64,000 nucleotides of DNA from an uncultured Actinomycetes bacterium. GTDB lineage: Bacteria > Actinomycetota > Thermoleophilia > Gaiellales > JAICJC01. The stretch's first letter is position 1, and every line of letters starts with the position of its first letter. A program made the position numbers and the translations under genes. Location: positions 1,587,667-1,651,666 of the forward strand of contig CAVWSF010000005.1 of NCBI GenBank assembly GCA_963757605.1. Direction: 5' to 3'. Shown piece by piece: positions 42,619 to 59,337 of this stretch. Under the pieces are notes generated by a model. The model saw only the letters and a list, made by a program, of their open reading frames with translations, was not told where the DNA came from and ran no database searches.

Positions 42619-42731
42619 CCGAGCGGGGCTGCCGTTCGGCTGAGGGAGGTCGGCTAGTCTGGAGGCCACCGCCCCGGGAAGTCGAGCTGGTCCCCCACTC
42701 TGGACTCCGTCCCTCCCGGCGGAGTCTCCCG

Positions 42732-44490
42732 ATGAACCCGTTCGACCCCGACGACTATCCCCTGCGCCCGACCGTTCGCCGTCTGTCCCACCTGTGGTGG
42801 GGCGAGCGCCGCCTGGTGGTGATCGGGCTCGTGTGTGCGCTCGCCTACACGACGCTCACGCTCACCATCTCGGTCCTGATCCAGCGGGCGATCGACCACG
42901 CGATCGTGCCCAAGGACGTCGGAGCGCTCTGGCCGTACGTGCTCGCCCTGCTGGGGCTCTCCCTGGCGCGGTTCTGGATCAACTTCACCCGGCGCTTCGC
43001 CACCGCGCGGGTCGGCGTGCGCCTCGAGGCCCGGCTGCGGCAGATGCTGTACGAGGGCTACCTGGGCTTCCCGCGCGCCTTCTACGACCTGCATCCGACG
43101 GGCCAGGTCGTGTCGCGGGCGACGAACGACCTCTTCCCGATCCGCTACTTCATCGGCTGGGGCGTCGTGCAGGGGTTCCAGAGCGCGATGATGATCACCG
43201 GCGGGGTGATCGTGCTCGCGCTCGTGAACCCGCGGCTCACGCTCTACTCCGCGGTCGCGACACCGCTGATCGGCTTCGTCGCCTGGCGGTTCGCCCACCT
43301 CGTCATGCCGATCTCGCGCCGCGTCCAGGCGGCCAAGGGCGACGTCACGGAGGCCGCCGACGAGGCGGTCGTCGGCATCGAGATGGTGCAGGCCTTCGGG
43401 CGCGAGGACGACGTGCGCGGGCGGTTCGGCGCCAAGGCGGCGTCGGTCCGCAACATCGTCGTCCAGCAGGCGGGAGTCGAGGCCCAGCACCTGCCGGCGC
43501 TCTTCTACCTGCCCACGCTGTCGATCGCCGCCGTCGTCTTCTTCGGCGGCCGCGACGTGATCGAGGGCCGGCTCACCATCGGCCAGTTCGTCCTCTTCAA
43601 CACGATTCTCCTGCAGCTGACGTGGCCGCTCGAGGCGCTCGGCTGGATCCTGAACCTGGCGCAGCGCGCGCTCGCGTCGGCGGGGCGCACGTTCGCCTGG
43701 CTCGAGCTCGTCGAGCGGCTGCCCGAGCCCGAGCACCCTCAGGCGCTGCCCGCCGGGCGGCTCTCCGTCACGTTCGAGGGCGTCCACTTCGCCTATCCGG
43801 GCGAGGAGGAGGTGCTGACCGGCGTCGAGCTCGCGCTCGATCCGGGCGAGATCGTGGCCGTCTGCGGCTCCACCGGCTCCGGGAAGAGCACGCTCCTCAA
43901 CCTGCTCCCCCGCTTCTACGACCCGACCGCCGGGCGCGTGCTCGTTGGCGGGGTCGACCTGCGCGACGTCGCGCCTGGCCGAGGTGCGCGCGAACGTCGC
44001 CGTCATCACCCAGCGGCCGATCCTGTTCTCGATCACCCTGCGCGAGAACCTGATCGCCGGCCGCCCGGACGTGCCCTGGGACGAGGTGGAGGCGATGTGC
44101 GCCGCCGCCGGCGTGGCGGACTTCGTGCCGGACCTCCCCAACGGGTACGACACGCTGATCGGCGAGCGCGGCGTGAACCTCTCCGGCGGCCAGCGCCAGC
44201 GCGTGGCGCTCGCCCGCGCCCTGATCGCAGGCGCCCCGGTGATCGTCCTCGACGATCCGCTCTCGGCCGTCGACACGCACACCGAGCACGACCTCGTCGG
44301 GCGGCTGCGTCCCGCCCTCGCGGGCCGCACGGTCATCGTCGCCGCCCAGCGCCTGTCCACCCTCGCCCTGGCCGACCGCGCCGCAGTGCTGTTCGACGGG
44401 CGCGTCGCCGAGGAGGGCCGTCCCGCCGCCCTCTTGGAACGGGGCGCCCTCTTCGCCGACCTCTTCGGAGACGAGATCGGTGTCGCATAG
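42732..44490 (+). pseudogene. ABC transporter (fused permease + ATPase, exporter type) interrupted by a single frameshift (about 43971)
   Basis: The TMD and Walker A ('GSTGSGKST') lie in the frame of ORF 42732. The Q-loop, 'LSGGQRQRVALARAL', Walker B 'VIVLDDPLSAVD' and H-loop lie in the frame of ORF 43945..44490. The junction reads gac gtc G cgc ctg gcc. Confidence 0.75.
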
Positions 44491-46273
44491 GCGTACCGGG
44501 CTCACCCGCCTCGGCGCGTACCTGACCGGGCGCCGGGCGCTCGTCGGCGGCCTGATCCTCGTCGCAACCGTGAGCGCCGCCGCCCAGTCCGGCGGCTGGC
44601 TGCTCGTACGGGCCGCGATCGATGACGGCATCGCCAAGGCCGACCGGCACACGCTCACGGTCGTCGTCATCCTCTACCTGGCGGTGGCCGCGCTCGGGTG
44701 GATCTGCCAGCTCGTGCTGATCCGCGGCCTTGCGGTCATCGGCCAGGGGATCGTGCTCGGCCTGCGGCGCGACCTCTTCGACCACCTGACCTCGCTCTCG
44801 CTGCGCTACTTCTCGGAGCAGCGGGCGGGATGGATCATCGCCCGCGTGACGAGCGACGTCGACGCCATCTCCGACGCGCTGTCACAGGGTCTCCCGACCC
44901 TGGTCTCGAACATCGTCCTGCTCCCAACGACGGTGATCGTGCTCTTCGTCGTCGACTGGCGGCTGGGTCTCGTGGCCATGGTGATCCTGCCGCCCGCGCT
45001 CATCCTGTCGCGCTGGTTCCAGCGCAAGTCGGCGGTGGCGCAGCTCGACGTGCGAAACCGCATCGCCGCCGTCACGGCCCAGGTGGCCGAGTCGGTGTCG
45101 GGGATGGCGATCGTGCAGGCGTTCAACCGCGAGCGCCAGTTCCAGGGGCAGTTCGACGAGCTGAACAGCGAGAACCGCAGCTCCAACATCTACGCCCAGC
45201 AGCTCTTCTCGGTGTTCTTCCCGTCGATCGAGCTCCTGGGGGCGATCTCGACCTGTGCCGTGCTCGTCGTGGGAGCGCGGTTCCTCTCCGAGGGCACGCT
45301 CACGATCGGCACGCTGATCACCGCCATCTACCTGCTGCAGCTCGTGTTCCAGCCGCTCCAGGAGCTCTCCGACGTGTACGGCCAGCTCCAGGCGGCGGGC
45401 GCGGCGATGGTGAAGATCACCTCGGTGCTCGACGCCGAGCCCGAGATCGGCGATCGCCCCGGCGCCGTGCCGATGCCGCCGATCGCGGGCGCCGTCGACC
45501 TCGACGAGGTCAGCTTCGCGTACGGCGAGACGGACGTGCTGCACGACATCTCGATCCACGTGCCCGCCGGCGGCTGCATCGCGCTCGTGGGCCAGACGGG
45601 CGGCGGCAAGTCGACGCTCGCGAAGCTGATCGCGCGCTTCTACGACCCGCGCACCGGCACCGTGTCGGTCGACGGGACCGATCTGCGCGACGTGCGGCTG
45701 GGCAGCTATCGCCGCCAGCTCGGGGTCGTGCTGCAGGACCCGTTCCTCTTCTCGGGCACCATCGCCGACAATCTGCGCTTCGGGCGGCCGGAGGCGAGCG
45801 ACGACGAGGTGCGCGAGACGGCCGCCGCGATCGGCCTCGACAGGCTCGTCGGCCGCCTCCACGGCGGGCTCGACCACGAGGTGCGCGAGGGCGGCTCCGG
45901 GCTCTCGGCCGGGGAGCGGCAGCTGATCTCGATCGCGCGGGCGCTCCTCGCCGACCCGCGCATCCTGATCCTCGACGAGGCCACGTCGAACATCGACCGG
46001 CCAACGGAGGTCCTGATCGAGCGGGCACTCGACCGGCTCCTGCACGGGCGCAGCTCGGTCATCATCGCCCACCGCCTGGCCACCGTCCGGCGGGCCGACG
46101 AGGTGATGGTCGTCGAGCGCGGCAAGATCGTCCAGCGGGGAGCCCCGGCCGACCTGCTCGCAGCCGACGGCCCGTTTCGGCGGCTGGCCGGGAGCCGCGA
46201 CCTGGCGGGCCGCGCGGCCCGAGACGCGGGGCGGCGCCGGCCGCCGGCCGTCCGGGCGCGACCGTGTTCCTAG
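44480..46273 (+). CDS. ABC transporter (fused permease + ATPase), partner of the upstream gene
   Basis: 597 aa and intact. A six-TM domain, 'GQTGGGKST', 'LSAGERQLISIARAL' and 'ILILDEATSNID' are present. It overlaps the upstream gene end by 11 nt. Confidence 0.85.
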   Translation: MSHRRTGLTRLGAYLTGRRALVGGLILVATVSAAAQSGGWLLVRAAIDDGIAKADRHTLTVVVILYLAVAALGWICQLVLIRGLAVIGQGIVLGLRRDLFDHLTSLSLRYFSEQRAGWIIARVTSDVDAISDALSQGLPTLVSNIVLLPTTVIVLFVVDWRLGLVAMVILPPALILSRWFQRKSAVAQLDVRNRIAAVTAQVAESVSGMAIVQAFNRERQFQGQFDELNSENRSSNIYAQQLFSVFFPSIELLGAISTCAVLVVGARFLSEGTLTIGTLITAIYLLQLVFQPLQELSDVYGQLQAAGAAMVKITSVLDAEPEIGDRPGAVPMPPIAGAVDLDEVSFAYGETDVLHDISIHVPAGGCIALVGQTGGGKSTLAKLIARFYDPRTGTVSVDGTDLRDVRLGSYRRQLGVVLQDPFLFSGTIADNLRFGRPEASDDEVRETAAAIGLDRLVGRLHGGLDHEVREGGSGLSAGERQLISIARALLADPRILILDEATSNIDRPTEVLIERALDRLLHGRSSVIIAHRLATVRRADEVMVVERGKIVQRGAPADLLAADGPFRRLAGSRDLAGRAARDAGRRRPPAVRARPCS

Positions 46274-47102
46274 CCGATCGCTGAGGCGATCTGGCTCTGG
46301 GTCAGCGCGGTGGCGTAGACGAGGAACCGCGACATCGTGCCGTTGAAGAACGCCTCGGCATCCTCGTTCGTGCCGACCCCGCCCGGCGCGTGCCCCTTCC
46401 GGTGCTTGGCGGCGACCACCAGGTTCTCGTCGATGCCGGTGATCGTCGCGCCGGTGTTCAGCGTGCCGGTCCGCGCGACGCTCCTGTCGAGGGCGAGATG
46501 GGTGCCGTCCCCGCGGGCGACGTAGGTGCGCAGATGCGCGCCGTCGTAGGTCGCGACCGCCCACGTCAGGGTGTGGTTCGGGATGACGCGGTTGCCGGTG
46601 AACGTGTCGGCCGAGTGGCCGTTGAAGAACCCGCCCACGCGAAGCCGGTACCTCGGGGTCGTGTCCTCGCGGACGTTGAACCAGAAGCTCCCGGCCTTCT
46701 CCATGAGCTCGTACCGCTGGTGCGCGGGGTCGGTGTCGACCGACTCCTTCAGCGTGAACCGGACGAGGATGGAGAAGTGGTTCACGTCGAGACCGCCCAT
46801 CCGGTTCGGGATCTCGATCCGCTGCTTCTGCCTGCCGGCGAAGACGACCGCCGTCGCGCCCTGGGCATCCGTCGTCGTGGTCGGGCTCCAGCTCGTCTCC
46901 GATCCGACCGGCCCCTTCTTCCCCGCACCGCCGTTTCCGCTCCCTGAGCGATCGGGACGCTCGGGCCGGAGATGTGCGCGAAGTCGAGGTCGATGATCGG
47001 CCCCGGCCCGGTGACGCCGGCGGCGCTCGGCCGCAGGCCCGACGCGCTTGCCGGCACGGCAAGCACCATGCAGGCCGCGACGAACGCGATGACTCGTCTC
47101 AC
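46270..47102 (-). pseudogene. secreted LamG/concanavalin-like domain protein, signal peptide and body in different frames
   Basis: ORF 46782..47102(-) gives 'RRVIAFVAACMVLAVPASASG...' and then degenerates. The LamG-like body ('GATAVVFAGRQKQRIEIPN...HFSILVRFTL...TWAVATYDG...FFNGTMSRFLVYATALT') is the C-terminus of ORF 46270..48510(-). The switch lies somewhere in 46900-46975. Confidence 0.6.
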
Positions 47103-47175
47103 TCGTTCCCTGCCCGGATCGTGGACGCTCTTCGTGACGATCGTAGCACTCGGCCGCTGCCACTAGGCTGGCGGG

Positions 47176-48432
47176 ATGCGCACCTCCCTCGCGCCGCTCG
47201 GCGAGCGGAACTTCCGGCTGCTCTTCTGCGCCCAGGCGGTCTGGCTCCTGGGCTCGTGGATGACGCCGGTCGCGCTGGCGTTCGCGGTCCTCAGCCTGAC
47301 CGACTCGCCGGCCGCGCTCGGCCTGGTGCTCGGCGCCGAGGCGGTGCCGCTCACGCTGCTCCTGCTCGTGGGCGGCGTCTGGGCCGACCGCCTGCCGCGC
47401 GTGCGCGTCATGGTGACGGCGGATCTGGTGAGCGCCGTCTCGCAGGGCACCACCGCCGTCCTGCTCATCGCCGGCTCGGCCGAGGTCTGGCAGCTGGCCG
47501 CCCTGGCCGCGGTCGGCGGCGCCGCCGACGCCTTCCACACGCCGGCCTGGTCGGGCCTTCTGCCCGAGACGGTGCCGCCGTCGATGCTGCAGCGTGCCAA
47601 CGCGCTGCGGCATCTCGAGTCGAACGCCGGCCGGGTGGCCGGGCCGCTGCTCGCCGGCGTCATCATCGCCGCCGCCGGCGCGGGCTGGGCGATCGCCGCC
47701 GACGCGCTCTCGTTCCTGCTGGCGGCGGTCATCCTGGTCGGCATCGAGGTGCCCGGCCGGGCCGTCGCCGAGGCCGCGACGAGCTTCGTGGACGAGCTTC
47801 GGGACGGCTGGCGCGCGGTGCGGTCGCAGTCGTGGCTCCTCCTGATGATGGTCGACACCGCGCTCTGGATGCTCGTGATCTACGCCCCGTACGCGGTACT
47901 CGGCCCGGTCGTCTGCGACCGCCAGCTCGACGGCGCGAGCTCGTGGGCCCTGATCGCGGCCGCCTACGGCCTCGGCAGCGTCGGCGGCGGCGTGCTCGGC
48001 CTGCGCCTGCATCCGCGCCGGCCGCTCCTGGTCGCCGTCGTCATCAACGCCGTCTTCCTCCCGCTCCTGGCCTCGCTGGCGGTGGCGGCTCCGGCGTGGA
48101 CGATCGCCGCCATGGCCGTCCCGGCCGGCGTCTCGACCTCGCTCTACATGGTGCTGTGGGACACCACGCTGCAAGAGCGCGTCCCTCGGGAGGCGCTCTC
48201 CCGCGTGTCGAGCTTCGAGCGGGTCTCGGTCTACGCCCCGCTCCCGATCGGGATGGCGCTGGCCGGCCCGGTCGCGCAGTGGCTGGGCGTCGAGGCGACG
48301 CTGTGGATCTCGGCGGCCTGGCTCGGCGTGTCCACCGTCTTCCTGCTCTCCGTCCCCAGCGTCCGCCGGATGGAGCGGCTCGCGCCCGAGCGCAGCCCCG
48401 CGCCCGGCCCGGCGTATCCTGCGGGGCCATGA
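47176..48432 (+). CDS. MFS transporter (EntS/MFS_3-like)
   Basis: 418 aa and hydrophobic. 'FRLLFCAQAVWLLGSW' and 'GGVWADRLPR' are present. Same subfamily pattern as 5349..6710. Confidence 0.8.
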   Translation: MRTSLAPLGERNFRLLFCAQAVWLLGSWMTPVALAFAVLSLTDSPAALGLVLGAEAVPLTLLLLVGGVWADRLPRVRVMVTADLVSAVSQGTTAVLLIAGSAEVWQLAALAAVGGAADAFHTPAWSGLLPETVPPSMLQRANALRHLESNAGRVAGPLLAGVIIAAAGAGWAIAADALSFLLAAVILVGIEVPGRAVAEAATSFVDELRDGWRAVRSQSWLLLMMVDTALWMLVIYAPYAVLGPVVCDRQLDGASSWALIAAAYGLGSVGGGVLGLRLHPRRPLLVAVVINAVFLPLLASLAVAAPAWTIAAMAVPAGVSTSLYMVLWDTTLQERVPREALSRVSSFERVSVYAPLPIGMALAGPVAQWLGVEATLWISAAWLGVSTVFLLSVPSVRRMERLAPERSPAPGPAYPAGP

Positions 48433-48475
48433 CGGGCGGCGCCCGGGCCCGCTGCGACCAGACCACGGGGCGATC
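48417..48475. repeat. copy A of a ~59-nt dispersed repeat (partner at 53809..53868)
   Basis: Hand alignment of tcctgcggGgccatgacgGgcggcgcccgggcCcgctgcgaccaGaccacg...cgatc against the partner gives 46 identical of the first 50 aligned positions. After that it degrades: 3 mismatches, 1 extra nt in copy B, then a shared cgatc. Confidence 0.5.
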
Positions 48476-48552
48476 TCGTGCACATCCCGCTCGTCGGCAC
48501 GGCGAAGCACGTATCGAGCGGGTCGCGCATGTCATGAGAGACTGGTGCGGCG

Positions 48553-49798
48553 ATGGATGTCGACTGGCACGCCGAGCGCGGCGACCTGCCGGCAGCTGGC
48601 GAGTCTGGACGACTTGGCGCCGGCCGGGATGGACTTCGCGCGCTTCGCCGCTATCGGCTGGGGCGGGTCCGCGAGCAGATGGAGGCGCACGGCCTCGACG
48701 CCTGCGTCCTGGTCGATCCGGTCAACGTCCGCTACGCCACCGGGGCCCGGAACATGCAGGTGTTCCACCTGCGAAACCCGGCCCGGTACCTGTTCCTGCC
48801 GCTCGACGGCCCGGTCGTCCTGCACGAGTTCACGGGCTGCATGCACCTGGCCGACGGCCTGGAGACGATCGCCGAGGTGCGCCCGGCGATCACCGCCAGC
48901 TACGCGGCCGCCGGGCCGGACGTGGAGGCGGCCGAGGCCGGCTGGGCCGGCCAGGTGGGCGATCTGGTGCGTGAGCACTGCGGCGGGCGAGCGCGCGTCG
49001 GCATCGAGCGGGTGAACGCCGGCGCTGCGCTCGCGCTGGCGGCGGAGGGCTTCCGTCTCTCCGACGCCCAGGCTCCGGTCGAGCGGGCGCGGGCGGTCAA
49101 GTCGGCGGAAGAGCTGGCCTGCATCCGAGCCTCGATCGCGGCCACCGAGGCCGGGGTCGCTCGCATGCGGGCAGCGCTCGCCCCGGGGCTGAGCGAGAAC
49201 CGGCTGTGGTCGATCCTGCACGAGAGCGTGATCGCGCTGGGCGGGGAGTACGTCGAGACCCGGCTTCTGTCGTCGGGGCCGCGCACCAACCCGTGGTTCC
49301 AGGAGACGGGCGAGCGGCGCATGGAGCCGGGCGAGCTGGTCGCGCTCGACACCGACGTGGTCGGATGCCACGGCTACTACTGCGACTTCTCGCGCACGTT
49401 CCACGCCGGGCCCGGCGAGCCGACCGCCCGCCAGCGGGAGCTCTACCGGCACGCCCACGAGCAGGTGCACACGAACCTCGAGCTGCTCGAGCCCGGCCTC
49501 TCGTTCCGCGAGTACGCCGAGCGGGCCTGGCCGATCCCCGAGCGGTTCCTGGCCAACCGCTACTTCTGCTCGGCGCACGGCTGCGGCATGACGGGGAGTA
49601 CCCCTACCTGTACCACCTGGTCGACTTCGACGAGTCCGGCTACGACGGCGTGCTCGTGCCGGGAATGACGATCTGCGTCGAGAGCTACGTCGGTGAGGAG
49701 GGCGGCGAGGAGGGCGTGAAGCTCGAGCAGCAGGCGTTGATCCGCGACGACGGTGTCGAGCTCCTGTCGTCTTCCCGTTCGAGCAGGCGCTGCTCTGA
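48553..49798 (+). pseudogene. M24-family metallopeptidase/creatinase-like hydrolase (Xaa-Pro aminopeptidase / ectoine-hydrolase type) with two frameshifts near the 3' end
   Basis: ORF 48553 is intact through 'ALDTDVVGCHGYYCDFSRTF' and 'SAHGCGMTG'. The sequence 'EYPYLYHLVDFDESGYDGVLVPGMTICVESYVGEEGGEEGVKLEQQALI..GVELLS' continues in the ORF 49206 frame (switch about 49593). '..FPFEQALL*' is in the third frame (switch about 49771), with stop 49796-49798. Confidence 0.7.
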
Positions 49799-49816
49799 GC
49801 CGGAGCGGCGGGTGGC

Positions 49817-51868
49817 GTGACGACCGTCCGCACGACCTGCCCGCGGGACTGCTACGACGCCTGCGGCGTCGCTCGTCGTCCAGCGGAACGGCCGCATCAC
49901 GCGGTCCGGGGCGACCCGGACCATCCGGTCAGCCGCGGGCCGCGCTGTGCCGGAAGTGCTCGATCGGCTACAACGGCGCGTTCCTCGACCCGGCCGCGCG
50001 GCTGCTCACGCCCCTGCGTCCGGAGCGGGCCGAAGGGCGCAGGCGCGTTCCGAGACGTCTCGCTGGGACGAGGCGCTCGGCGCTGGTCGCCGAGCGGCTC
50101 GGCGCGGTCGTCGAGGCGGCCGGCGCCGCGAGGCGATCCTCAACACCCACTACACGGGCACGTTCGCGCTGCTCGGCTACGGCTTCCCGCTGCGGTTCTT
50201 CAACCGCCTCGGCGCGACCGAGGTCGACCCCGACACCGTCTGCAACAAGGCGGGCCACGTCGCGCTCGACTACCTCTACGGCACGTCGGAGTCGGGTTCG
50301 ACCCGCGCACCGCGGCGCGACGCCGCCTGCATCCTCGTGTGGGGCGCGAACCCGTCGGCCTCGCGCGCCGCACGCCGACGAGCACTGGCTGGCGGAGGCG
50401 CCCGGCGCGGTCGATCGTCGTCGACCCGATCCGGACCGGGACCGCGGCGCAGGCCGACCTGCACCTGCAGCCGTTCCCCGGCTCGCGACGCCGCGCTCGC
50501 GTTCGCGCTCCTGCACGTGATCCGCGCGCGACGGGCTCGCCGACCGCGCGTTCCTGGCCGCGCACAGCGCTCGGCTGGCGACGAGCTCGAGCCGCTGCTC
50601 GGCGACCGTGCACGCCGGAGTGGGGCGAGCGGACGACCGGCGTCCCCGCGGCCGACATCGAGCGCGCCGCGCATCTCTACGCGCGCGGGCCCGTCGCTGC
50701 TGTGGCTCGGGCAGGGGCTGCAGCGCCAGCCGACGGGCGGCAACGTCATGCGCGCGTGTCGCGCTGCTGCCCGCCGCTCACCGGCAACCTCGGCCGCCGC
50801 GGCGCCGGGTTCCTCTACCTCAACGGCGACGGCCGCGCGGGATCGACGGCGACTAGCTGACCGGCGCCGCACCTGGCGCGGACCCGCCGCCGCCGGTGAG
50901 CCAGATGGACCTCGCCGGCCGCCTCGAGGATCGCCGACCGTTCGCGCGCGCTCGTCTGCTGGAACATCAACATCGCCGCGTCCAACCCGGAGCAGGCGCG
51001 GCTGCGGGCCGCCCTGGCCCGCGAGGACCTGTTCACGGTCGTCGTCGACCTCTTCCCGACGGACACCACCGACTTCGCCGACGTCGTGCTCCCGGCGGCG
51101 AGCTTCCTCGAGTTCGACGACCTCGTCACGCCCTACTTCAACCTCAGCGTCTCCGCCCAGGTGAAGGCGGTCGACCCGCCGGGCGAGGCGCTGCCGAACC
51201 AGGAGATCTTCCGCCGCCTGGCCGAAGCGATGGGCTACACCGAGCCGGAGCTCTTCGAGCCCGACGCCGTCCTCCTGGACGAGATCGTCCGCCAGGCGGG
51301 CGTGGCGGACAGCTTCGACCGGCTCGCCGCGGCCCGCTCGATCCCACTGTCGCCCGAGCCGATCGTCCAGTTCGCCGACCGCCGCTTCCCGACGCCGAGC
51401 GGCCGGGTCGAGATCGCATCGGCCGCCGCCGAGGCCGACGGCCACCCGCGCGTGCCGCTGCCCTGGGCCGACGATCGGCCTGGCCCGGGACGGCTCCGGC
51501 TGCTCTCGCCCGCCTCGGCCTGGCCGCTGAACGACACCTTCGCCAACGACCGCAAGGTGGCGCACGCGATGGGGCAGGCCGCCGTCGCGCTGCACCCCGC
51601 CGACGCGGCCCGGCTCGGCGTCGCCGACGGCGATCTCGTCACCGCCGCGAACGGGCACGGCACGCTCACCGGGCTCGTCGTCCGCGTATCCGACGTCGTG
51701 CCGCGCGGCGTCGCGCTCTCGCCGAAGGGCCGCTGGCCGCGGCGGGAGCCGAGCCGTGCCAACGTGAACGTCCTGAACCCGGGGTCGAAGGCCGACATGG
51801 GCGAGAGCACCGCCGTGCACGGCGTCGAGGTCGAAATCAGGCCACAGGCGGCGACCGCGACCGGCTGA
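49817..51868 (+). pseudogene. molybdopterin (MGD)-dependent oxidoreductase, 5' 1.1 kb riddled with about 21 frame changes and one in-frame TAG; 3' 0.93 kb intact
   Basis: The N-terminus is 'TTCPRDCYDACG' (Fe-S Cys motif). Family sequence can be followed only by hopping between all three frames up to 50936. From there, ORF 51086..51868 and its upstream in-frame extension are continuous ('NINIAASNPEQ...LPAASFLEFDD...' and the C-terminal beta-barrel domain 'VALHPADAARLGVADGDLV'). Confidence 0.8.
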
Positions 51869-51875
51869 GCCGCGG

Positions 51876-53747
51876 TCAGGGCGCGAGCATCCGAAGCCGG
51901 AGCGGACGCCCGCCGGAGGCGGTACCTGTCAGGCGCGCCTCGGCCCGGCGGCCCTGCATGCTCCAGCGCAGGTGCAGGTGCTCGTGGACTGCACCGGGCC
52001 CGGTGACCGTCACCACCCCCCGCACCCAGCCGTGCTTGTACGACCAGCGTACGCGGCCCGACAACCCCACTCCGGGCACGAATGCGGCACCGTGCAGGTG
52101 GAAGGTCGTCAGGTCGCCGATTCCCGTATACGACCAGGTCCCACCGCGCAGGCCGTGGTCGACGCCGCTGTAGTTGACCCACCACCGCTGGAGGGCATCG
52201 GCGACCGACTCGGCGCCCGCGGCCGCGACCCGCCGCTCCTGGAGCGTCGAGCGGTCGCCGGCGGCGGGCGTCGCCGGCGCCACGCCAGACAGGTGGAGCG
52301 GGAAGTCGTCGACGACCCGCACCTCGGGCGTGCTCTGGGAGGCGCAGGAGGTGTCGCCCGGCTTGAGCGTCTCCACGAAGTGGGCGTAGATGTTCTTGGG
52401 GCAGTCGAAGTTGTCGGCAAGCGCGGTCACGTGGATGTCGTTCTGGACGACGACGTAGTGGCTGTTCGGGAACCGCGAGGCCACGACGCTCGCGTCCTCG
52501 AGCGGGGTGATGTTGTCGATGTCCCCGTTCAGGACGAGCGTCGGCACGCCGGGATAGCGGGCGCCGGGGGGATCCGGCGGGTCGGGGAACGCGGGCGACG
52601 GCCAGTGCAGGCACTGAAGGCCACCCTCGTACGGGTAGCCGATCCACGCCAACCCGCCGAACGGGTAGAAGGGGCTCGTCCCGATCTGCCGCAGCCCGGC
52701 GTGCGTGATCGCCAGCCGGTCGGCCATCGGGGCGGAGGACGACCACGGCTGCGGATAGTCGTGGCAGACGACAGCGAGGTAGAGCGCCTCGGAGCTGTAG
52801 ACAGGGTCCTCCTCGGGCCCGTCGGTGGTGAACGTCTCCGCCGCAAGCCGCAGGATCGGCTGGTCGTCGCCGCGCCAGACGGCCCGGATAGCGGCCGGCA
52901 GGTCGCGATACGTCGTCGGGTAGTAGTAGCCCGACCCGGCGAGCTGCACGAGCGCGTCCTCGTCCACCCGCATGAAGACCCGGGTGCCGTCGCCGTTTCG
53001 CGTCCAGCCCGTGATCGGATGGCGGCGGACGCGGTGCACGAGCTGCGCCAGCGCGGCCACCGGGTCGCCGTGGGACATGCAGGGCGGCCGGCGTGCGCAC
53101 GTCAGCCGCAGCGCGATCCGTGTCCGCGCGGCCAGGTCGCGGAAAAACGGGTCCGATCCCGGCAGCTGGTAGGTGCCGTCGAGCACGAGCGATCGCAGCC
53201 GCACCGGGAAGCGCAGCGCAAACGCCTGGGCCGCATACGAGCCGTACGAGTCGCCGTACAGGTCGACCTTGCCCGCGTGGACGGCCTTGAGCACCGCCTC
53301 GACGTCCTGCACCGACTGGGAGGTGTCGTAGAAGTCGCGCTTGGGACCGAGCTGGCGGGCGCAGCGGCCCGCCCGCGGCAGGTAGGGCAGGATGTGGTGC
53401 TTGAAGGCAGGGCAGTCGAGCGCCCCCGACCGCCCGGTGCCCCGCAGGTCGACGAGCAGCAGGCTGCGGCGGGATGCGACGGGCCGCGAGAGGGCCACGC
53501 GGTTTGCCCGGTCGGCGGTGGTCGGGTAGCCGGGCCCGCCCTCGATCGAGACGATCGTGGATATCACCGGGCGGGAGGCGTCGCCCGGCGGGTAGAGCTC
53601 GAAGTAGATCCGGATCCGCCGTCCACGCGGGTCGCGGCGGTCGAGCGGAACAGGCAGATATCCACAGAACGCGCCGTGAGCCGATGCGAAGTGCGGACAG
53701 TGCGCCCGCTGGACCGCCGGCGAGACGACCGGCGGCGGAGCGTGCAT
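51876..53747 (-). CDS. alpha/beta hydrolase, tripeptidyl-aminopeptidase (TAP/S33)-like
   Basis: 623 aa and intact. 'IEGGPGYP', 'LVDLRGTGRSG' and 'LYGDSYGSYAAQ' (GxSxG nucleophile elbow) are present, followed by a long C-terminal domain. Confidence 0.8.
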   Translation of the reverse strand: MHAPPPVVSPAVQRAHCPHFASAHGAFCGYLPVPLDRRDPRGRRIRIYFELYPPGDASRPVISTIVSIEGGPGYPTTADRANRVALSRPVASRRSLLLVDLRGTGRSGALDCPAFKHHILPYLPRAGRCARQLGPKRDFYDTSQSVQDVEAVLKAVHAGKVDLYGDSYGSYAAQAFALRFPVRLRSLVLDGTYQLPGSDPFFRDLAARTRIALRLTCARRPPCMSHGDPVAALAQLVHRVRRHPITGWTRNGDGTRVFMRVDEDALVQLAGSGYYYPTTYRDLPAAIRAVWRGDDQPILRLAAETFTTDGPEEDPVYSSEALYLAVVCHDYPQPWSSSAPMADRLAITHAGLRQIGTSPFYPFGGLAWIGYPYEGGLQCLHWPSPAFPDPPDPPGARYPGVPTLVLNGDIDNITPLEDASVVASRFPNSHYVVVQNDIHVTALADNFDCPKNIYAHFVETLKPGDTSCASQSTPEVRVVDDFPLHLSGVAPATPAAGDRSTLQERRVAAAGAESVADALQRWWVNYSGVDHGLRGGTWSYTGIGDLTTFHLHGAAFVPGVGLSGRVRWSYKHGWVRGVVTVTGPGAVHEHLHLRWSMQGRRAEARLTGTASGGRPLRLRMLAP

Positions 53748-54832: not shown

Positions 54833-56344
54833 GTGTCGGACGAGCTCGCCGCCCGAAGCACCGGCCTAGGGGTGGGGTCATCCGGGTTCGTCGCAACCCA
54901 CGGCCTCCACACCGACGCCCAGCGTGACGCCGCCCGCGAGGTCGTCCGCCAGATCCGGGACGCGGATCTCCGCACGGTGCGGCTGGTGATCGTCGACCAG
55001 CACGGCATCCCGCGCGCGAAGTACCTCTCGGGCGACTCGCTCGCCTCGGCGCTCGAGAACGGCTCGGACTTCTCGGGCGCGATCTTCAGCCTCGACTCGG
55101 CCAACGGCGTCTTCCCGCCGGCGTTCGCGGCGGGCGGCGGGTTCGCCATCGACGAGATGACCGGCTTCCCGGACGTCACGCTCGTCCCCGACCCGGCCAC
55201 GTTCCGGGTGCTGCCGCACGCCGATCGCACGGGCTGGATCCTGTCCGACTCGTACTTCGCAAACGGCAAGCCGATCCCGCTCGACGGACGCGGGCTCCTG
55301 CGCCGCCAGCTCGACCGCCTCGGCGAGCGCGGCCTCGAGCTCTATGCCGGCATCGAGGTCGAGCTCTACGTGACGCGGCCGGTGAACGCCTCGGTCGGGT
55401 TCGACGAGACGGGACAGCCGGGCGCGCCGGGCAAGCCGCTCGAGGTCGAGCCGATCGAGCGCGGCTACCAGTTCCTCTCGGACAGCCGCATGGATGCGTT
55501 CGCCGAGACGGTGGAGGCGATCCGCGACGGGCTCACGGACGTCGGCATCCCGCCGCGCTCGATCGAGAACGAGTGGGGGCCGGGGCAGATCGAGATCACG
55601 TTCAGCCCGATGGAGGGCCTCGCCGCGGCCGACGCCATGATCCTCTTCCGCAGCACCGTGAAGGCGATCTGCGCGCGCCTCGGCCTGCACGCCACGTTCA
55701 TGTGCTGGCCGGCCCTGCCCAACTTCTTCCCGAGCGGCTGGCATCTCCACATGTCGATCCTCGAGCGGGACGGTGGCCGGAACGTCTTCATGGACGAGCG
55801 CGAGCTCCTGTCCCCGTCCGGGCGGCAGTTCGTCGCGGGGCTGCTCGACCACGCGCGCGAGATGGCGGTCTTCGGCGACCCGACGACCAACGCGTATGCG
55901 CGCTTCCGCCCGTACTCCTTCGCGCCGGACCGGATCTGCTGGGGCGGGGACAACCGCGGCGCGCTGATCCGCGTCCAGGGCGGCCCGGGCGACCCCGGCA
56001 CACACGTCGAGAACCGACTCTCCGAGCCGGCCGCGAACCCGTATCTGTGGCTCGCAGCGAACATCGCAGCGGGCCTCGACGGCATCGACCGCGGGGCCGA
56101 GCCGCCCGACCCCGTCGAGGGCGATCCGTACGTGGCCGACGCGCCGCTGCTTCCGCAGTCGCTCGCCGAGGCGGTCGACGAGCTCGAGGGCAGCGCCTTC
56201 TACCGGACGGCGTTCGGCGATCCGCTCCTCGACTACCTCGTGATGATGAAGCGCTTCGAGCTCAACCGCCTGAACGAGGCGGCGGGCGAGGACGGCTCCG
56301 GGCGGAGCGACTGGGAGATGCGCGAGTACTTCGAGTTCTGCTGA
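54833..56344 (+). CDS. glutamine synthetase-family ligase (gamma-glutamyl-amine synthetase type, GlnA3/PuuA-like)
   Basis: 503 aa with 'VRLVIVDQHGIPRAKY' (beta-grasp), 'EVELYV', 'ENEWGPGQIEITF', 'ATFM..P...SGWHLHMS', 'NAYARF' and 'WGGDNRGALIRV'. Confidence 0.85.
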   Translation: MSDELAARSTGLGVGSSGFVATHGLHTDAQRDAAREVVRQIRDADLRTVRLVIVDQHGIPRAKYLSGDSLASALENGSDFSGAIFSLDSANGVFPPAFAAGGGFAIDEMTGFPDVTLVPDPATFRVLPHADRTGWILSDSYFANGKPIPLDGRGLLRRQLDRLGERGLELYAGIEVELYVTRPVNASVGFDETGQPGAPGKPLEVEPIERGYQFLSDSRMDAFAETVEAIRDGLTDVGIPPRSIENEWGPGQIEITFSPMEGLAAADAMILFRSTVKAICARLGLHATFMCWPALPNFFPSGWHLHMSILERDGGRNVFMDERELLSPSGRQFVAGLLDHAREMAVFGDPTTNAYARFRPYSFAPDRICWGGDNRGALIRVQGGPGDPGTHVENRLSEPAANPYLWLAANIAAGLDGIDRGAEPPDPVEGDPYVADAPLLPQSLAEAVDELEGSAFYRTAFGDPLLDYLVMMKRFELNRLNEAAGEDGSGRSDWEMREYFEFC

Positions 56345-57159
56345 TGTGCCGGCTGCTCGCGCACGTGTCCCGCCGGCCGCTCACGGTTGCCGAGGCGGTC
56401 GGCGACGCCGACCTCGCCGCCTTCGCCGACCTGTCGCCGCGCCACCCCGACGGGTGGGGCATGGCGTGGTGGCCGGCGCTCGACGCGATCGCCGACGGCG
56501 CCGTCCCCGAGCGCCGGCGCGCGGTCGGAAGCGCCCGCGAGAACCCGGAGTTCACCGAGACCATGTGCGGCGTCGCCGGCTGCGCGAACGTCGTGCACCT
56601 GCGCGGCGCGACGCCCGGGCTCACGATCGAGCTCGAGAACTGCCACCCGTTCGTGCTTCCCGGGGCGGCCTTCGCGCAGAACGGCGCGATCCACCCCCAG
56701 CACCGCCTGCCCGAGCTCCTGCCGGCGGGCCTCGAGGCGGAGGTCACCGGCTCGACCGACAGCGAGCGCCTGTTCCTCCACCTGTACGACCGGCTCGCGG
56801 GCGGCCGGCCGTTCGCCGAGGTCGTCCGCGAGGCGCTCGCGGAGCTGCTCGAGCACTTCACCTCACCCGTCCTGAACTCGATGTACCTGACGCCGGAGCA
56901 CCTGCACGTCATCAACGCCCACAACCCGACCGCGCTGCCGTATCCCGGCGACCCGCACGACCTCTTCGCCCTTCGCTTCCGGCTGAAGGACGATCTCGTC
57001 GTCGTCGCGTCCTCCGGCTTCGACCAGCCCGAGTCGCGCGGCTGGCACACCCTCGACAACATGACGATCCTGACGGTGGCGCTCGACACGCTCGAGCTTC
57101 GCATCGACGCGCTCGACGGCGTCCCCGTCCCGTCCTACGACTACTCGGAGCGCCGATGA
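56344..57159 (+). CDS. class II (Ntn) glutamine amidotransferase-like hydrolase (YafJ/EgtC type)
   Basis: It starts 'MCRLLAH' (N-terminal nucleophile Cys2). 'DGWGMAW', 'HLRGAT' and 'NCHPF' are present. The ATG overlaps the GS-like stop (TGATG). 271 aa. Confidence 0.8.
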   Translation: MCRLLAHVSRRPLTVAEAVGDADLAAFADLSPRHPDGWGMAWWPALDAIADGAVPERRRAVGSARENPEFTETMCGVAGCANVVHLRGATPGLTIELENCHPFVLPGAAFAQNGAIHPQHRLPELLPAGLEAEVTGSTDSERLFLHLYDRLAGGRPFAEVVREALAELLEHFTSPVLNSMYLTPEHLHVINAHNPTALPYPGDPHDLFALRFRLKDDLVVVASSGFDQPESRGWHTLDNMTILTVALDTLELRIDALDGVPVPSYDYSERR

Positions 57160-57914
57160 GCACCCAGCGCGAGCGCGTCGTCCTCGTCACCGGCGCGGCC
57201 GGCGGCATCGGTGCCGCGTCGGCCCGCACGCTCGCCGCCGAAGGTGCCGCCGTGGTCCTGCACGACCTGCGCCGCGAGGGGCGGCTCGGGGAGCTCGCCG
57301 ACGAGCTGGGCGACGCGGCCCACGCGCTCACGGCCGACCTGACCGATCCGGCGGCGGCCGACGCGCTCTGGCGCGAGGCGGTCGCCTGGCGCGGCCACGT
57401 CGACGTCCTCGTGAACAACGCGGGGATCTACGAGGCGGCGGACCCCGACGGCGACCTCGCGGCGTGGCAGGCGGCGTGGGAGCGGACGCTCGCGATCTGC
57501 CTCGTCTCGCCGGCGGCGCTCTGCCGCGCGGCGATCGCGAGCTTCCGCGAGCAGCCCGGTGGAGGCATTATCGTGAGCCTCGCGAGCCGCGCGGCCTGGC
57601 GCGGCGAGGACGCCGAGTACTGGCACTACGCCGCCGCCAAGGCCGGCGTCGTCGCCATGACGAAGACCATCGCGCGGCAGTACGGCCGCCAGGGGGTGAC
57701 GGCCTTCGCGGTGGCGCCCGGCTTCGTCGACACGCCGTTCAACGCACCGGCCGTCGCGGAGCACGGCATGCAGCTCTTCGTGGACGACACCGCGCTCGGG
57801 GAGGTCGCCCAGCCGCAGGACGTCGCCAACGTGATCGCGTTCCTCGCCTCGGGCAAGGCGCGCCACGCCACAGGCGCCACGATCGACGTCAACACGGCGA
57901 GCTACGTCCGCTGA
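57156..57914 (+). CDS. short-chain dehydrogenase/reductase (SDR)
   Basis: 'VLVTGAAGGIGAA', 'NNAG' and 'YAAAKAG' are present. The ATG overlaps the upstream stop (ATGA). 252 aa. Confidence 0.85.
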   Translation: MSTQRERVVLVTGAAGGIGAASARTLAAEGAAVVLHDLRREGRLGELADELGDAAHALTADLTDPAAADALWREAVAWRGHVDVLVNNAGIYEAADPDGDLAAWQAAWERTLAICLVSPAALCRAAIASFREQPGGGIIVSLASRAAWRGEDAEYWHYAAAKAGVVAMTKTIARQYGRQGVTAFAVAPGFVDTPFNAPAVAEHGMQLFVDDTALGEVAQPQDVANVIAFLASGKARHATGATIDVNTASYVR

Positions 57915-57951
57915 GCCCGGCAGGCGCGCGGCCGCGTTCGCGGCGGGCCCC

Positions 57952-59337
57952 GTGCTCGCCGTCGTCGGCCTGAAGTGCGCGCTGGAGCTGGCCGTGGCCG
58001 GGCGGTACGGGTGGCATCGCGACGAGCTCTACTACGCCGTCGCCGGCATGCATCTGCAGGGCGGGTACGTCGAGTTCCCGCCGGTCACGGCGCTCCTGGC
58101 GGCGCTGGCCCGCGAGCTCTTCGGGTGGTCGCTCGTCGGCTTGCGGGCCTTCACGATCCTCGCGAGCGCGGGGACGGTCGTGGTCGGCGCCCTGGCCGCC
58201 CGCGAGCTGGGCGCGACGCGGCGCGCGCAGACGCTCGCTGCGGTGATCATCGGCTTCTCGCCGGGGATGCTCGCGACGAACCTGCTCTTCCAGCCGGTCG
58301 CCCTCGATCAGCTGGCGACGCTCGTCGTCCTCTGGCTGGCGCTGCGGCTCGCGCTGGGTCGCGGCTCGTGGCCCCTCCTCGGGGTCGCGGCCGGGATCGG
58401 GCTCGAGACGAAGTACACGCTCGCGGTCGTCCTCGTGCTCTTGATCGGGACGTTCCTCGTCTGGCGCCGCGACGTCCTGCGCTCGTGGGGGCTCCCGGTC
58501 GCGGTCGCGATCGCGGCGGCGCTGCTCGTCCCGAACCTCGTCTGGGAGGCGGGCCACGGCTGGGCGAGCGTTCACTGGTTCCTCGATCCCGCGGCGAGCG
58601 CGACCGACGAGTCGAGGCCCGTGTTCATCGTGAACGTGATCCTGCTCGCCGGGGTCGCGGCCCCTGTCGCGTGGGCCGGAGTTACGTCGCTCATCCGCGA
58701 TCGCGCCCTGCGGCCGCTGGGCTGGACGGTCGTGGGCACGGTCGTCGCCTACTTCGTGCTGGGCGGCAAGTCGTACTACGCGCTGCCCGTGGTGGTGTTC
58801 GCGTTCGCCGCGGGCGCGCCGGCGCTCGATCGATGGATCGCCCGCCGCCCGCGCCGGCTCCTGAAAGGCTCTGTCGCATTCGCCGGGGTGAGCATCCTGG
58901 TCCTCCCGATCGCACTGCCGGTGCTGCCGCTGCACACGGCTGTTGCGCACGGAGTCGTGAAGGCGCGCAGCGACTATCAGTCCGAGGTTGGCTGGCCCGA
59001 GTACGTGCGACTCGTGAAGCGGGAGTCCGCGGGCGCGGACGTGATCATCGCGAGCAACTACGGCGAGGCGGGCGCGCTCGAGGTGCTCGGCCACGACCTC
59101 CCACCGATCGCCTCGGCGGACGTGTCGATGCGCTACTGGCGTCCGCCGGTGACGGGGCGCAGTGCGCTCGTGGTCGGCTACTCGCAGGCTGCCGCCAGCT
59201 TCTGCGACGGCTATCGCCTCGTCGCGCGGATCTCATCGGCGAATGACAGCGACGAGGGCGGCGAGCCGATCGCACGCTGCACGCTCCGCGGCACCCTCGC
59301 CAGAGTGTGGCCGGCGATCGTGGCGACGGAGGGGTAG
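57952..59337 (+). CDS. GT-C fold glycosyltransferase (family 39/83, ArnT/PMT-like)
   Basis: 461 aa with about 10 TM helices. 'HRDELYY' (DE/DxD-like loop after TM1) and 'GLETKYT' are present, followed by a soluble C-terminal domain. The GTG 57952 start is uncertain. Confidence 0.75.
   Translation: MLAVVGLKCALELAVAGRYGWHRDELYYAVAGMHLQGGYVEFPPVTALLAALARELFGWSLVGLRAFTILASAGTVVVGALAARELGATRRAQTLAAVIIGFSPGMLATNLLFQPVALDQLATLVVLWLALRLALGRGSWPLLGVAAGIGLETKYTLAVVLVLLIGTFLVWRRDVLRSWGLPVAVAIAAALLVPNLVWEAGHGWASVHWFLDPAASATDESRPVFIVNVILLAGVAAPVAWAGVTSLIRDRALRPLGWTVVGTVVAYFVLGGKSYYALPVVVFAFAAGAPALDRWIARRPRRLLKGSVAFAGVSILVLPIALPVLPLHTAVAHGVVKARSDYQSEVGWPEYVRLVKRESAGADVIIASNYGEAGALEVLGHDLPPIASADVSMRYWRPPVTGRSALVVGYSQAAASFCDGYRLVARISSANDSDEGGEPIARCTLRGTLARVWPAIVATEG

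Follow-up and report, generated by a model that had tools for sequence, protein, structure and literature searches.

A frameshift cluster spanning an M24 peptidase gene and a molybdopterin oxidoreductase gene is probably a collapsed two-variant consensus

We found that a 1.3-kb zone of the window, by which we mean the whole 64-kb stretch of DNA analysed here, carries a dense cluster of frame-breaking lesions across two adjacent genes, one encoding an M24-family peptidase and the other a molybdopterin oxidoreductase. Comparison with related sequences indicates that this zone is almost certainly an error of assembly, probably a consensus in which two variants were collapsed, and that it does not imply gene loss. 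We favour a two-variant consensus because the edges of the zone match a deletion breakpoint (49594) and a divergence boundary (~50936), because the zone is hybrid in composition and because insertions fall at allele differences. The organism or organisms concerned most likely carry open copies of both genes. Read literally, the record would count as the loss of a two-gene unit in which the molybdopterin oxidoreductase and the M24 hydrolase have both been pseudogenized, and the zone thus serves as a warning about sequence quality.

Lesions in the two genes

A preliminary description of this DNA had reported about 24 reading-frame lesions in a sharply bounded zone (49593–50935), and alignment to intact homologues confirmed that the lesions are present as described in the deposited sequence. 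We counted 22 frame-breaking lesions and one stop codon in 1343 nt, close to that estimate; if the 26 frame lesions found in the window were evenly spread over 64 kb, ~0.55 would be expected in the zone. Frameshift-aware alignment to three homologues placed 19–20 shifts within 49871–50936 and none in 50937–51868, in agreement with the continuous frame described after ~50936. The sharp boundary holds on the right side only, as on the left the M24 gene also has a +1/−1 pair (48592/~48640). All 20 peptide fragments listed earlier were found, 19 of them where they had been placed; the remaining fragment, which begins TTCPRDC, starts at 49832, inside the open reading frame (ORF) beginning at 49817.

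Indels were typed by DNA alignment to the gene copies L081, L082, L083 and L092. Compared with either allele type, the molybdopterin oxidoreductase (Mo-enzyme) gene has, in its 5′ half, 17 insertion events (13 of 1 nt and 4 of 2 nt) and three single-base deletions (~49898, 50288 and ~50835). Most of the −1 events, previously taken for base losses in G or C runs, proved to be +2 insertions in the DNA alignment. At the position of the in-frame TAG, 13 of 120 homologues have Trp (TGG) and 101 have Tyr (TAC), and the stop may be a mixture of the two alleles' codons or, equally, a single TGG>TAG change. The lesions of the zone lie mostly outside homopolymers and consist of an extra C or G, or of GC dinucleotides, at allele-variable sites.

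Table 1. Positions of the two genes and of their lesions in the window
Feature	Position	Strand	Remarks
M24 peptidase-family gene (Creatinase_N + Peptidase_M24; Xaa-Pro peptidase / DddP-like)	48553..49799	+	Four single-base lesions
Compensated pair in the 5′ part of the M24 gene, outside the zone described earlier	48592..48640	+	+1 (CCGG[C]AGC) at 48592, −1 at ~48640
First zone lesion, one G absent	49591..49597	+	ACGGGGAG vs expected ACG GGG GAG; frameshift-aware alignment
Second M24 lesion in the zone, 1-nt deletion	49770..49771	+	TCG-TC-TTC vs relatives' TCG TCC TTC
Molybdopterin (Mo/W-bis-PGD) oxidoreductase gene, ~675 codons	49817..51868	+	Only the 3′ 311 codons in one frame
Core lesion zone	49871..50936	+	20 frame-breaking indels and one TAG; hybrid of two alleles
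In-frame TAG	50854..50856	+	One allele type TGG, other TAC
Lesion-free 3′ half of the Mo-enzyme gene	50937..51868	+	DNA 94.8% identical to L081, no indels

The repaired M24 protein matched PF00557 (99.8 bits) and PF01321 (39.2 bits) in Pfam and has homologues of 415–418 aa at 88–89% identity, from which we predict an M24 metallopeptidase (Xaa-Pro peptidase / creatinase fold). DddP was its best NCBIfam match, at 321 bits under a cut-off of 600 bits. The two shifts placed earlier at about 49593 and 49771 were both recovered as −1 lesions, at 49591–49597 and ~49770. Frameshift-aware alignment to P0121–P0123 and P0127, together with DNA alignment to L090 and L091, revealed the upstream compensated pair, which garbles ~15 codons and leaves the ORF open. 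The public record calls the M24 gene solely as a truncated 371-aa ORF (48553–49668); the database protein P0124 is the exact translation of window positions 48553–49665, and the truncated ORF occurs only in the source record (a protein cluster of one member), on a public contig of 1,657,801 bp present in NCBI and ENA.

The Mo-enzyme protein, stitched together from its fragments as in the preliminary description, matched intact homologues of 654–690 aa over its full length, with 82–85% identity to the best of them. Homologues at 70–85% identity carry PF04879, PF00384 and PF01568, and a Cys cluster motif (CPRDCYDACG) is encoded from 49832, at the N terminus of the product of the window gene. These domains and the motif point to a putative Mo/W-bis-PGD oxidoreductase of the DMSO reductase superfamily. 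No NCBIfam equivalog cut-off was reached for a named enzyme, the best being Fdh-alpha (216 bits against a cut-off of 666). The closest match of the window protein reaches 81% in the N-terminal half compared with 92% in the C-terminal half.

Hybrid composition and edges of the zone

Analysis of the zone DNA revealed that it is a site-by-site hybrid of a P0002/L081-like allele and a P0006/L092-like allele. Here the window shares 85.0% identity with L081 and 81.1% with L092, two copies that are 72.7% identical to each other, and its private branch is ~3.3%, compared with 11.7% and 15.6% for L081 and L092. L081 and L092 differ at 296 sites of the zone, and at these the window agrees with L081 at 159, with L092 at 118 and with neither at 19. 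The parental states are interleaved, forming 121 runs among 277 informative sites (136 expected if random), so that single-parent runs average ~2 informative sites. In the 3′ half, the window agrees with L081 at 244 sites and with L092 at 39. The protein lies at 0.48 of the path from P0002 to P0006 with a private branch of 4.0%, whereas natural sequences projecting mid-path (n = 111) have private branches of at least 9.6% (median 14.7%).

The indels also follow allele differences. In a post hoc test, devised after the data had been viewed, seven of the 13 single-base insertions repeated the base that the other allele has at the neighbouring variant site (null 16.6%, P = 0.002). The alleles differ in length by whole codons at two positions, and at each of them the window is of intermediate length (+2/−1 at ~49898 and +5/−1 at ~50835).

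Three other analyses of the zone were set aside. Clade-diagnostic amino-acid columns first hinted at a 50:50 mix, but natural sequences of the P0005/P0006 group, used as a control, scored alike because the 'other 110' set is heterogeneous, and the path and private-branch test was substituted for them. A block mosaic, in which the parent would change at the frameshifts, was discarded, as each fragment between lesions holds both parental states. The codon position of the insertions was uninformative, since they would lie next to third positions about two-thirds of the time by chance.

Both edges of the zone coincide with variant features of the L081-type locus. L081 and L082 lack window positions 48393–49593, a 1.2-kb deletion in the M24 gene, and homology resumes at 49594, where the deletion breakpoint, the left edge and the first zone lesion (49591–49597) fall together. 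The right edge (~50936) is the last lesion, and beyond it identity to L081 is ~95%, up from ~85%. The Mo-enzyme gene is also mosaic among relatives, P0002 and P0001 being 97% identical in the N-terminal half and 87% in the C-terminal half. Close relatives show modest but real differences, namely the 1.2-kb M24 deletion and an exchanged 5′ half in the Mo-enzyme gene, and the M24/Mo-enzyme locus is therefore a hotspot of strain-level variation. Among 80 orthologous loci from species-representative genomes, a single internal frameshift occurs in each of two and clusters occur in none. None of the databases searched contained a P0006-type allele with flanks like those of the window, and L092 lies in a gene neighbourhood unlike that of the window. 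A scan of genome contigs for a near-identical contig gave only orthologues of at most 71% identity, and a scan of metagenome contigs with the neighbouring hydrolase gene gave only relatives of at most 82% identity.

The zone has the features of mixed alleles, namely a midpoint position with a short private branch, fine interleaving, insertions at allele differences and coincident edges. From these we infer a read pile-up of two variants and a software step behind the lesions. Two co-occurring variants would have near-identical flanks and diverge strongly from ~49594 to ~50936. One would be L081/L082-like, lacking 1.2 kb of the 5′ part of the M24 gene and having a Mo-enzyme gene whose 5′ half is P0002-type; in the other, the M24 gene would be intact and the 5′ half of the Mo-enzyme gene P0006-type, with ~73% DNA identity to its counterpart in the first. 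The shared flanks may anchor reads of both variants, which would pile up on one draft, and the polisher would then pick either allele's base site by site at the differences and often keep both bases in tandem, generating extra bases and hence frameshifts. The consensus would stay near-clean where the alleles are ~95% alike (right of 50936) or where one variant alone has sequence (most of the M24 gene). When mixed noisy reads were simulated with a naive majority pileup, the result was a clean single allele unless coverage of the two was exactly tied, and then 1–3 indels; the exact software behaviour was therefore not reproduced.

Rival readings of the zone

The preliminary description had offered a locally poor consensus as one explanation, which the data support in general; the form it gave as an example, a gap closed with one or a few long reads, fits less well than a blend of two divergent variants. 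A patch built from one or a few noisy long reads of a genuine unsampled allele (low coverage or gap fill), without allele mixing, is unlikely. The ~1.6 indels per 100 nt lie within what poorly polished long-read sequence shows, the isolated frameshifts in other parts of the window point to imperfect polishing, and the naive mixing simulation failed to give the observed pattern. However, such a patch leaves unexplained the midpoint position with a private branch under half the length of the shortest among natural mid-path sequences, the inserted bases that equal those of the other allele at adjacent variant sites, and the coincidence of both edges with L081-type variant features.

The other explanation offered earlier, a very recent burst of indels, would mean that the Mo-enzyme gene was destroyed and the M24 gene nicked in a living organism. 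Frame-disrupting lesions in recognizable coding sequences, as in pseudogenes, are present in the deposited sequence and dense in adjacent genes (20 indels and the TAG in the Mo-enzyme gene and four lesions in the M24 gene), and the closest relatives independently lost most of M24, so the locus is evolutionarily unstable. We nevertheless regard real inactivation as very improbable. The Mo-enzyme lesions do not extend over the whole gene but all lie within 49871–50936; the 3′ half would be equally unconstrained if the gene were dead, yet its 932 nt are free of lesions. Relaxed selection is not seen at conserved residues, as in the repaired protein none of 154 near-invariant columns (≥95% conserved) is altered in the zone, compared with 2 of 129 in the clean half, and no substitution load accompanies the indels. 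Bacterial pseudogenes are usually reported as deletion-biased, which the 17:3 excess of insertions opposes, and the fine-scale hybrid composition is left unexplained. The earlier statement that little substitution decay has occurred is borne out at the conserved residues, but the zone DNA is 15% diverged from its nearest relative, compared with 5% just downstream. Neutral decay since the split from L081 is contradicted by the unaltered conserved residues. Programmed frameshifting, RNA elements and DGR-type variation were also considered, none of which fits 20 shifts within 1 kb; no Rfam family matched anywhere in the 64-kb window.

A hybrid zone in a gene that is demonstrably mosaic among relatives could also have arisen in vivo, by recombination or gene conversion between ~73% identical alleles or paralogues with patchy mismatch repair and error-prone synthesis. 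We consider this the most improbable of the readings. Parent runs of ~2 informative sites are far below the lengths of known conversion tracts, sequences that differ by 27% recombine very inefficiently, and we know of no repair outcome that keeps both parental bases in tandem. If the deposited sequence were nevertheless a real molecule, its ~20 small insertions in a 1.1-kb tract would represent localized insertion-biased mutagenesis, which to our knowledge is undescribed in bacteria.

Comparison with known errors and the rest of the window

A collapsed two-variant consensus resembles the errors of collapsed-strain consensus in long-read metagenomes, which likewise form a local cluster of indels with fragmented gene calls in an otherwise contiguous megabase-scale contig, are restricted to the segment where variants diverge and give a sequence between two natural alleles. 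The zone differs in being extreme, with 22 lesions in 1.3 kb and a near-50:50 blend of ~73% identical alleles, and in that simple simulation did not yield its pattern. Multi-frameshift bacterial pseudogenes of reductive evolution share several frameshifts and a stop in a recognizable coding sequence, with adjacent genes hit, but the zone lacks missense decay, is insertion-biased, covers half of one gene and is a two-allele hybrid. PCR chimeras, formed by template mixing, also join two parental sequences and have no natural close relative; however, they switch parent in long blocks without indels, whereas the zone alternates every few informative sites. A mixed-variant consensus has a recognizable signature, shown here, that can be detected from the sequence alone: insertion-biased frameshifts, undamaged conserved residues, a midpoint hybrid and edges at variant breakpoints.

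The source assembly is probably a long-read metagenome-assembled genome. Microdiversity affects soil long-read genomes of this kind, which have been built with Flye followed by a single round of Medaka (PMC12313526), and frameshift-causing consensus indels are a known weak point of Nanopore-only assemblies at modest coverage (PMC9262707). The homopolymer and low-coverage errors of such assemblies (PMC9262707) resemble the zone in that single-base indels frameshift gene calls, but differ in that the zone lesions are mostly outside homopolymers. The isolated lesions of the window (~43970, ~46958, 48592, ~48640 and the G run at 49591–49597) fit this Nanopore homopolymer/low-coverage class. Those at ~46958 and ~43970 contradict the earlier statement that the genes on both sides of the zone are intact, and the interval 54833–59337, given there as a single gene, comprises four ORFs.

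Frame lesions across the M24 and oxidoreductase genes

The lesion-dense zone (49593–50936) spans the 3′ end of a gene predicted to encode an M24 Xaa-Pro-peptidase/creatinase-fold protein and the 5′ half of the next gene, whose domains (PF04879, PF00384 and PF01568) and CPRDCYDACG cluster motif identify its predicted product as a cytoplasmic-type Mo/W-bis-PGD oxidoreductase that attained no NCBIfam equivalog cut-off. For P0121, an M24 homologue with 89% identity to the protein encoded in the window, the top NCBIfam match was DddP (321 bits, cut-off 600), and the M24 protein may be a DddP (DMSP lyase)-like lyase or hydrolase instead of a peptidase. No Rfam family matched anywhere within the 64-kb window.

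Features of the window around the lesion-dense zone
Feature	Coordinates	Strand	Remarks
ABC transporter gene (ABC_membrane + ABC_tran)	42727–44490	+	Split by +1 at ~43970, GAC GTC [G] CGC CTG
LamG_3-like secreted protein gene	46273–47069	−	1-nt deletion at ~46958 relative to intact 267-aa L081 orthologue (93% identity)
MFS transporter	47176–48432		Flanks M24/oxidoreductase pair
M24 gene	48553–49799	+	Directly upstream of oxidoreductase gene
Mo-oxidoreductase gene	49817–51868	+	Core of zone, 49871–50936
Alpha/beta hydrolase	51876–53747	−	Flanks M24/oxidoreductase pair

Three-frame translation recovered every peptide fragment listed in the preliminary description, and the lesions claimed there do exist in the sequence as deposited. 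Once stitched together, the 676-aa protein had matches to thousands of intact molybdopterin oxidoreductases (654–690 aa), the best being P0002 (85%) and P0001 (82%), from uncultured Gaiellales/Thermoleophilia-like metagenome contigs. Frameshift-aware protein-to-DNA alignment against P0001–P0003 required 19–20 frame changes over 49871–50936 and no change at all over 50937–51868, the stretch up to the stop codon, in line with the continuous frame described from 50936. The two further M24 shifts proposed near 49593 and 49771 were found as single-base deletions at 49591–49597 and ~49770; the public record's own gene call there is a shortened 371-aa open reading frame (ORF). Trained on genes of the window itself (GC3 ~94%), an HMM of codon composition gave long single-frame segments ending at stops over nearly all 64 kb and failed only at 49590–50946. 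In total, the zone holds 22 frame-breaking lesions and one TAG in 1343 nt, where ~0.55 lesions would be expected if the 26 frame lesions of the window were evenly spread.

The indels were called by DNA alignment to the gene copies at related loci on other contigs: L081 and L082 (encoding P0002), L083 (P0001) and L092 (P0006). Relative to both allele types, L081-like and L092-like, the oxidoreductase gene carries 17 insertion events (13 single-base, 4 two-base) and three single-base deletions, so that most −1 shifts previously read as one-base losses are +2 insertions. Most of the added sequence is C, G or the dinucleotide GC, and it does not lengthen homopolymers.

Zone edges and allelic composition

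Loci L081 and L082, from two different JGI samples, are ~94–95% identical to the window over 45151–48392 and 50936–52940. Both lack window positions 48393–49593 (at L081 3251–3507 and L082 1–22) and with them the first 83% of the M24 gene, of which a 3′ remnant of 70 codons survives in frame immediately ahead of an intact oxidoreductase gene. Homology restarts at 49594, the exact site of the first lesion of the zone, and identity stays at ~85% up to ~50936, the site of the last lesion, beyond which it is ~95%. By these alignments, the edges of the zone are explained by the known L081/L082 variant. Between P0002 and P0001, identity is 97.4% in the N-terminal half vs 87.4% in the C-terminal half, which indicates that natural relatives exchange the 5′ half of this gene; the switch in identity falls near the position equivalent to window 50817–50936.

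Within the zone, DNA identity is 85.0% between the window and L081, 81.1% between the window and L092 and 72.7% between L081 and L092, and by three-point distances the private branch is only ~3.3% for the window, against 11.7% for L081 and 15.6% for L092. L081 and L092 disagree at 296 sites of the zone, of which the window shares 159 with L081 and 118 with L092, leaving 19 that fit neither; L081-like and L092-like sites follow one another almost at random (121 runs, 136 expected), and both parental states occur in every inter-lesion fragment. In protein terms, the window falls at 0.48 along the P0002–P0006 path, and its private branch is 4.0%; among the 111 natural sequences projecting mid-path, this branch never falls below 9.6% (median 14.7%). 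Among database proteins nothing exceeds 81% for the zone protein, compared with a 92% match for the C-terminal half and 91–95% matches on L081 for neighbouring genes; right of 50936, the window is a plain close relative of L081 (94.7–94.8% identity, no indels). Its composition marks the zone as a hybrid between two naturally occurring alleles. A clade-diagnostic-column test of mixing was confounded and was discarded.

The lesions themselves follow the differences between the alleles. Of the 13 single-base insertions, seven equal the other allele's base at the adjoining variant site (null 16.6%, P = 0.002, in a test devised post hoc, after the data had been seen), as in GTC|CTC and GCG|CTC giving GTC-G-CTC, or TC-C-GAC and TC-G-GAC giving TC-GC-GAC. 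Where one allele has whole codons that the other lacks, the length in the window falls between the two and breaks the frame (+2/−1 at ~49898; +5/−1 at ~50835). The TAG at 50854–50856, where TGG stands in one allele type and TAC in the other, is consistent with a mixed codon and equally with a plain TGG>TAG change.

Origin of the lesions

The preliminary description had offered a recent indel burst with gene loss, or a poor local consensus. Little substitution decay, as it claimed, was found: at alignment columns with at least 95% conservation across 120 homologues, 0 of 154 are altered in the repaired N-terminal half and 2 of 129 in the lesion-free C-terminal half. Some 20 indels arising by ordinary mutation should be accompanied by many substitutions, and the remaining 3′ half of that gene, equally free to decay, is clean. 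Bacterial pseudogenes are generally reported to show a deletion bias, opposite to the 17:3 insertion bias here. Together these observations argue against decay of the oxidoreductase gene, and with the hybrid composition, allele-tracking insertions and variant-matched edges they make an indel burst in the living organism very improbable; the zone should not be taken for gene loss. An in vivo mosaic of alleles 73% identical is harder still to credit, as it needs gene conversion over only a few bases at a time, with both parental bases persisting in tandem, neither of which is known. The indels would also follow from a noisy, low-coverage stretch of a single genuine allele, but we consider this unlikely because it leaves unexplained the midpoint-hybrid position, the allele-matched insertions and the coincidence of both edges. 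Of the two options first offered, poor consensus is the one supported, in a form more specific than a few-read gap fill.

The zone is best explained, on sequence evidence, as a mixed-variant consensus artefact. The source is a 1,657,801-bp contig in NCBI and ENA, a length that, for an uncultured soil-type actinobacterium, points to a long-read metagenome-assembled genome (MAG). Two locus variants would have shared flanks but differed in whether M24 was deleted and in which 5′ half the oxidoreductase gene carried. Long reads from both would have entered one pile-up, and from breakpoint to convergence point the consensus step would have blended the alleles and retained extra bases; the M24 part found in one variant only would have had lower depth, which would fit the two extra lesions within that part. 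We hypothesize a software step behind the lesions; a naive pile-up simulation of mixed reads did not reproduce the pattern. Consensus indels causing frameshifts are documented for Nanopore-only assemblies below ~40× coverage (PMC9262707), and soil long-read MAGs, assembled with Flye and one Medaka round, show strong microdiversity (PMC12313526). Among 80 representative orthologue loci, from a set including many long-read MAGs (Microflora Danica set), none has a lesion cluster and 78 have no internal frameshift. The other two have one each: L052 at ~10091 (MFD05684.bin.2.31) and L072 at ~10208 (MFD03975.bin.2.246). The biology of note here would be limited to strain-level structural and allelic variation at the locus.

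Lesions elsewhere in the window

The zone is less isolated than described: further lesions lie to its left, at 48592, ~48640, ~46958 and ~43970, and no comparable ones were found right of 50936 in the window. At the 5′ end of the M24 gene, 48592 and ~48640 form a compensated +1/−1 pair that scrambles ~15 codons and keeps the ORF open, hiding it from ORF inspection. The signal-peptide part of the LamG_3-like gene is out of frame with the remainder, and the ABC transporter regains a complete ABC_tran domain once both frames are joined. The stretch 54833–59337, previously taken for one intact gene, comprises four consecutive ORFs in different frames (ends 56344, 57159, 57914 and 59337), the first encoding a glutamine-synthetase-family protein.
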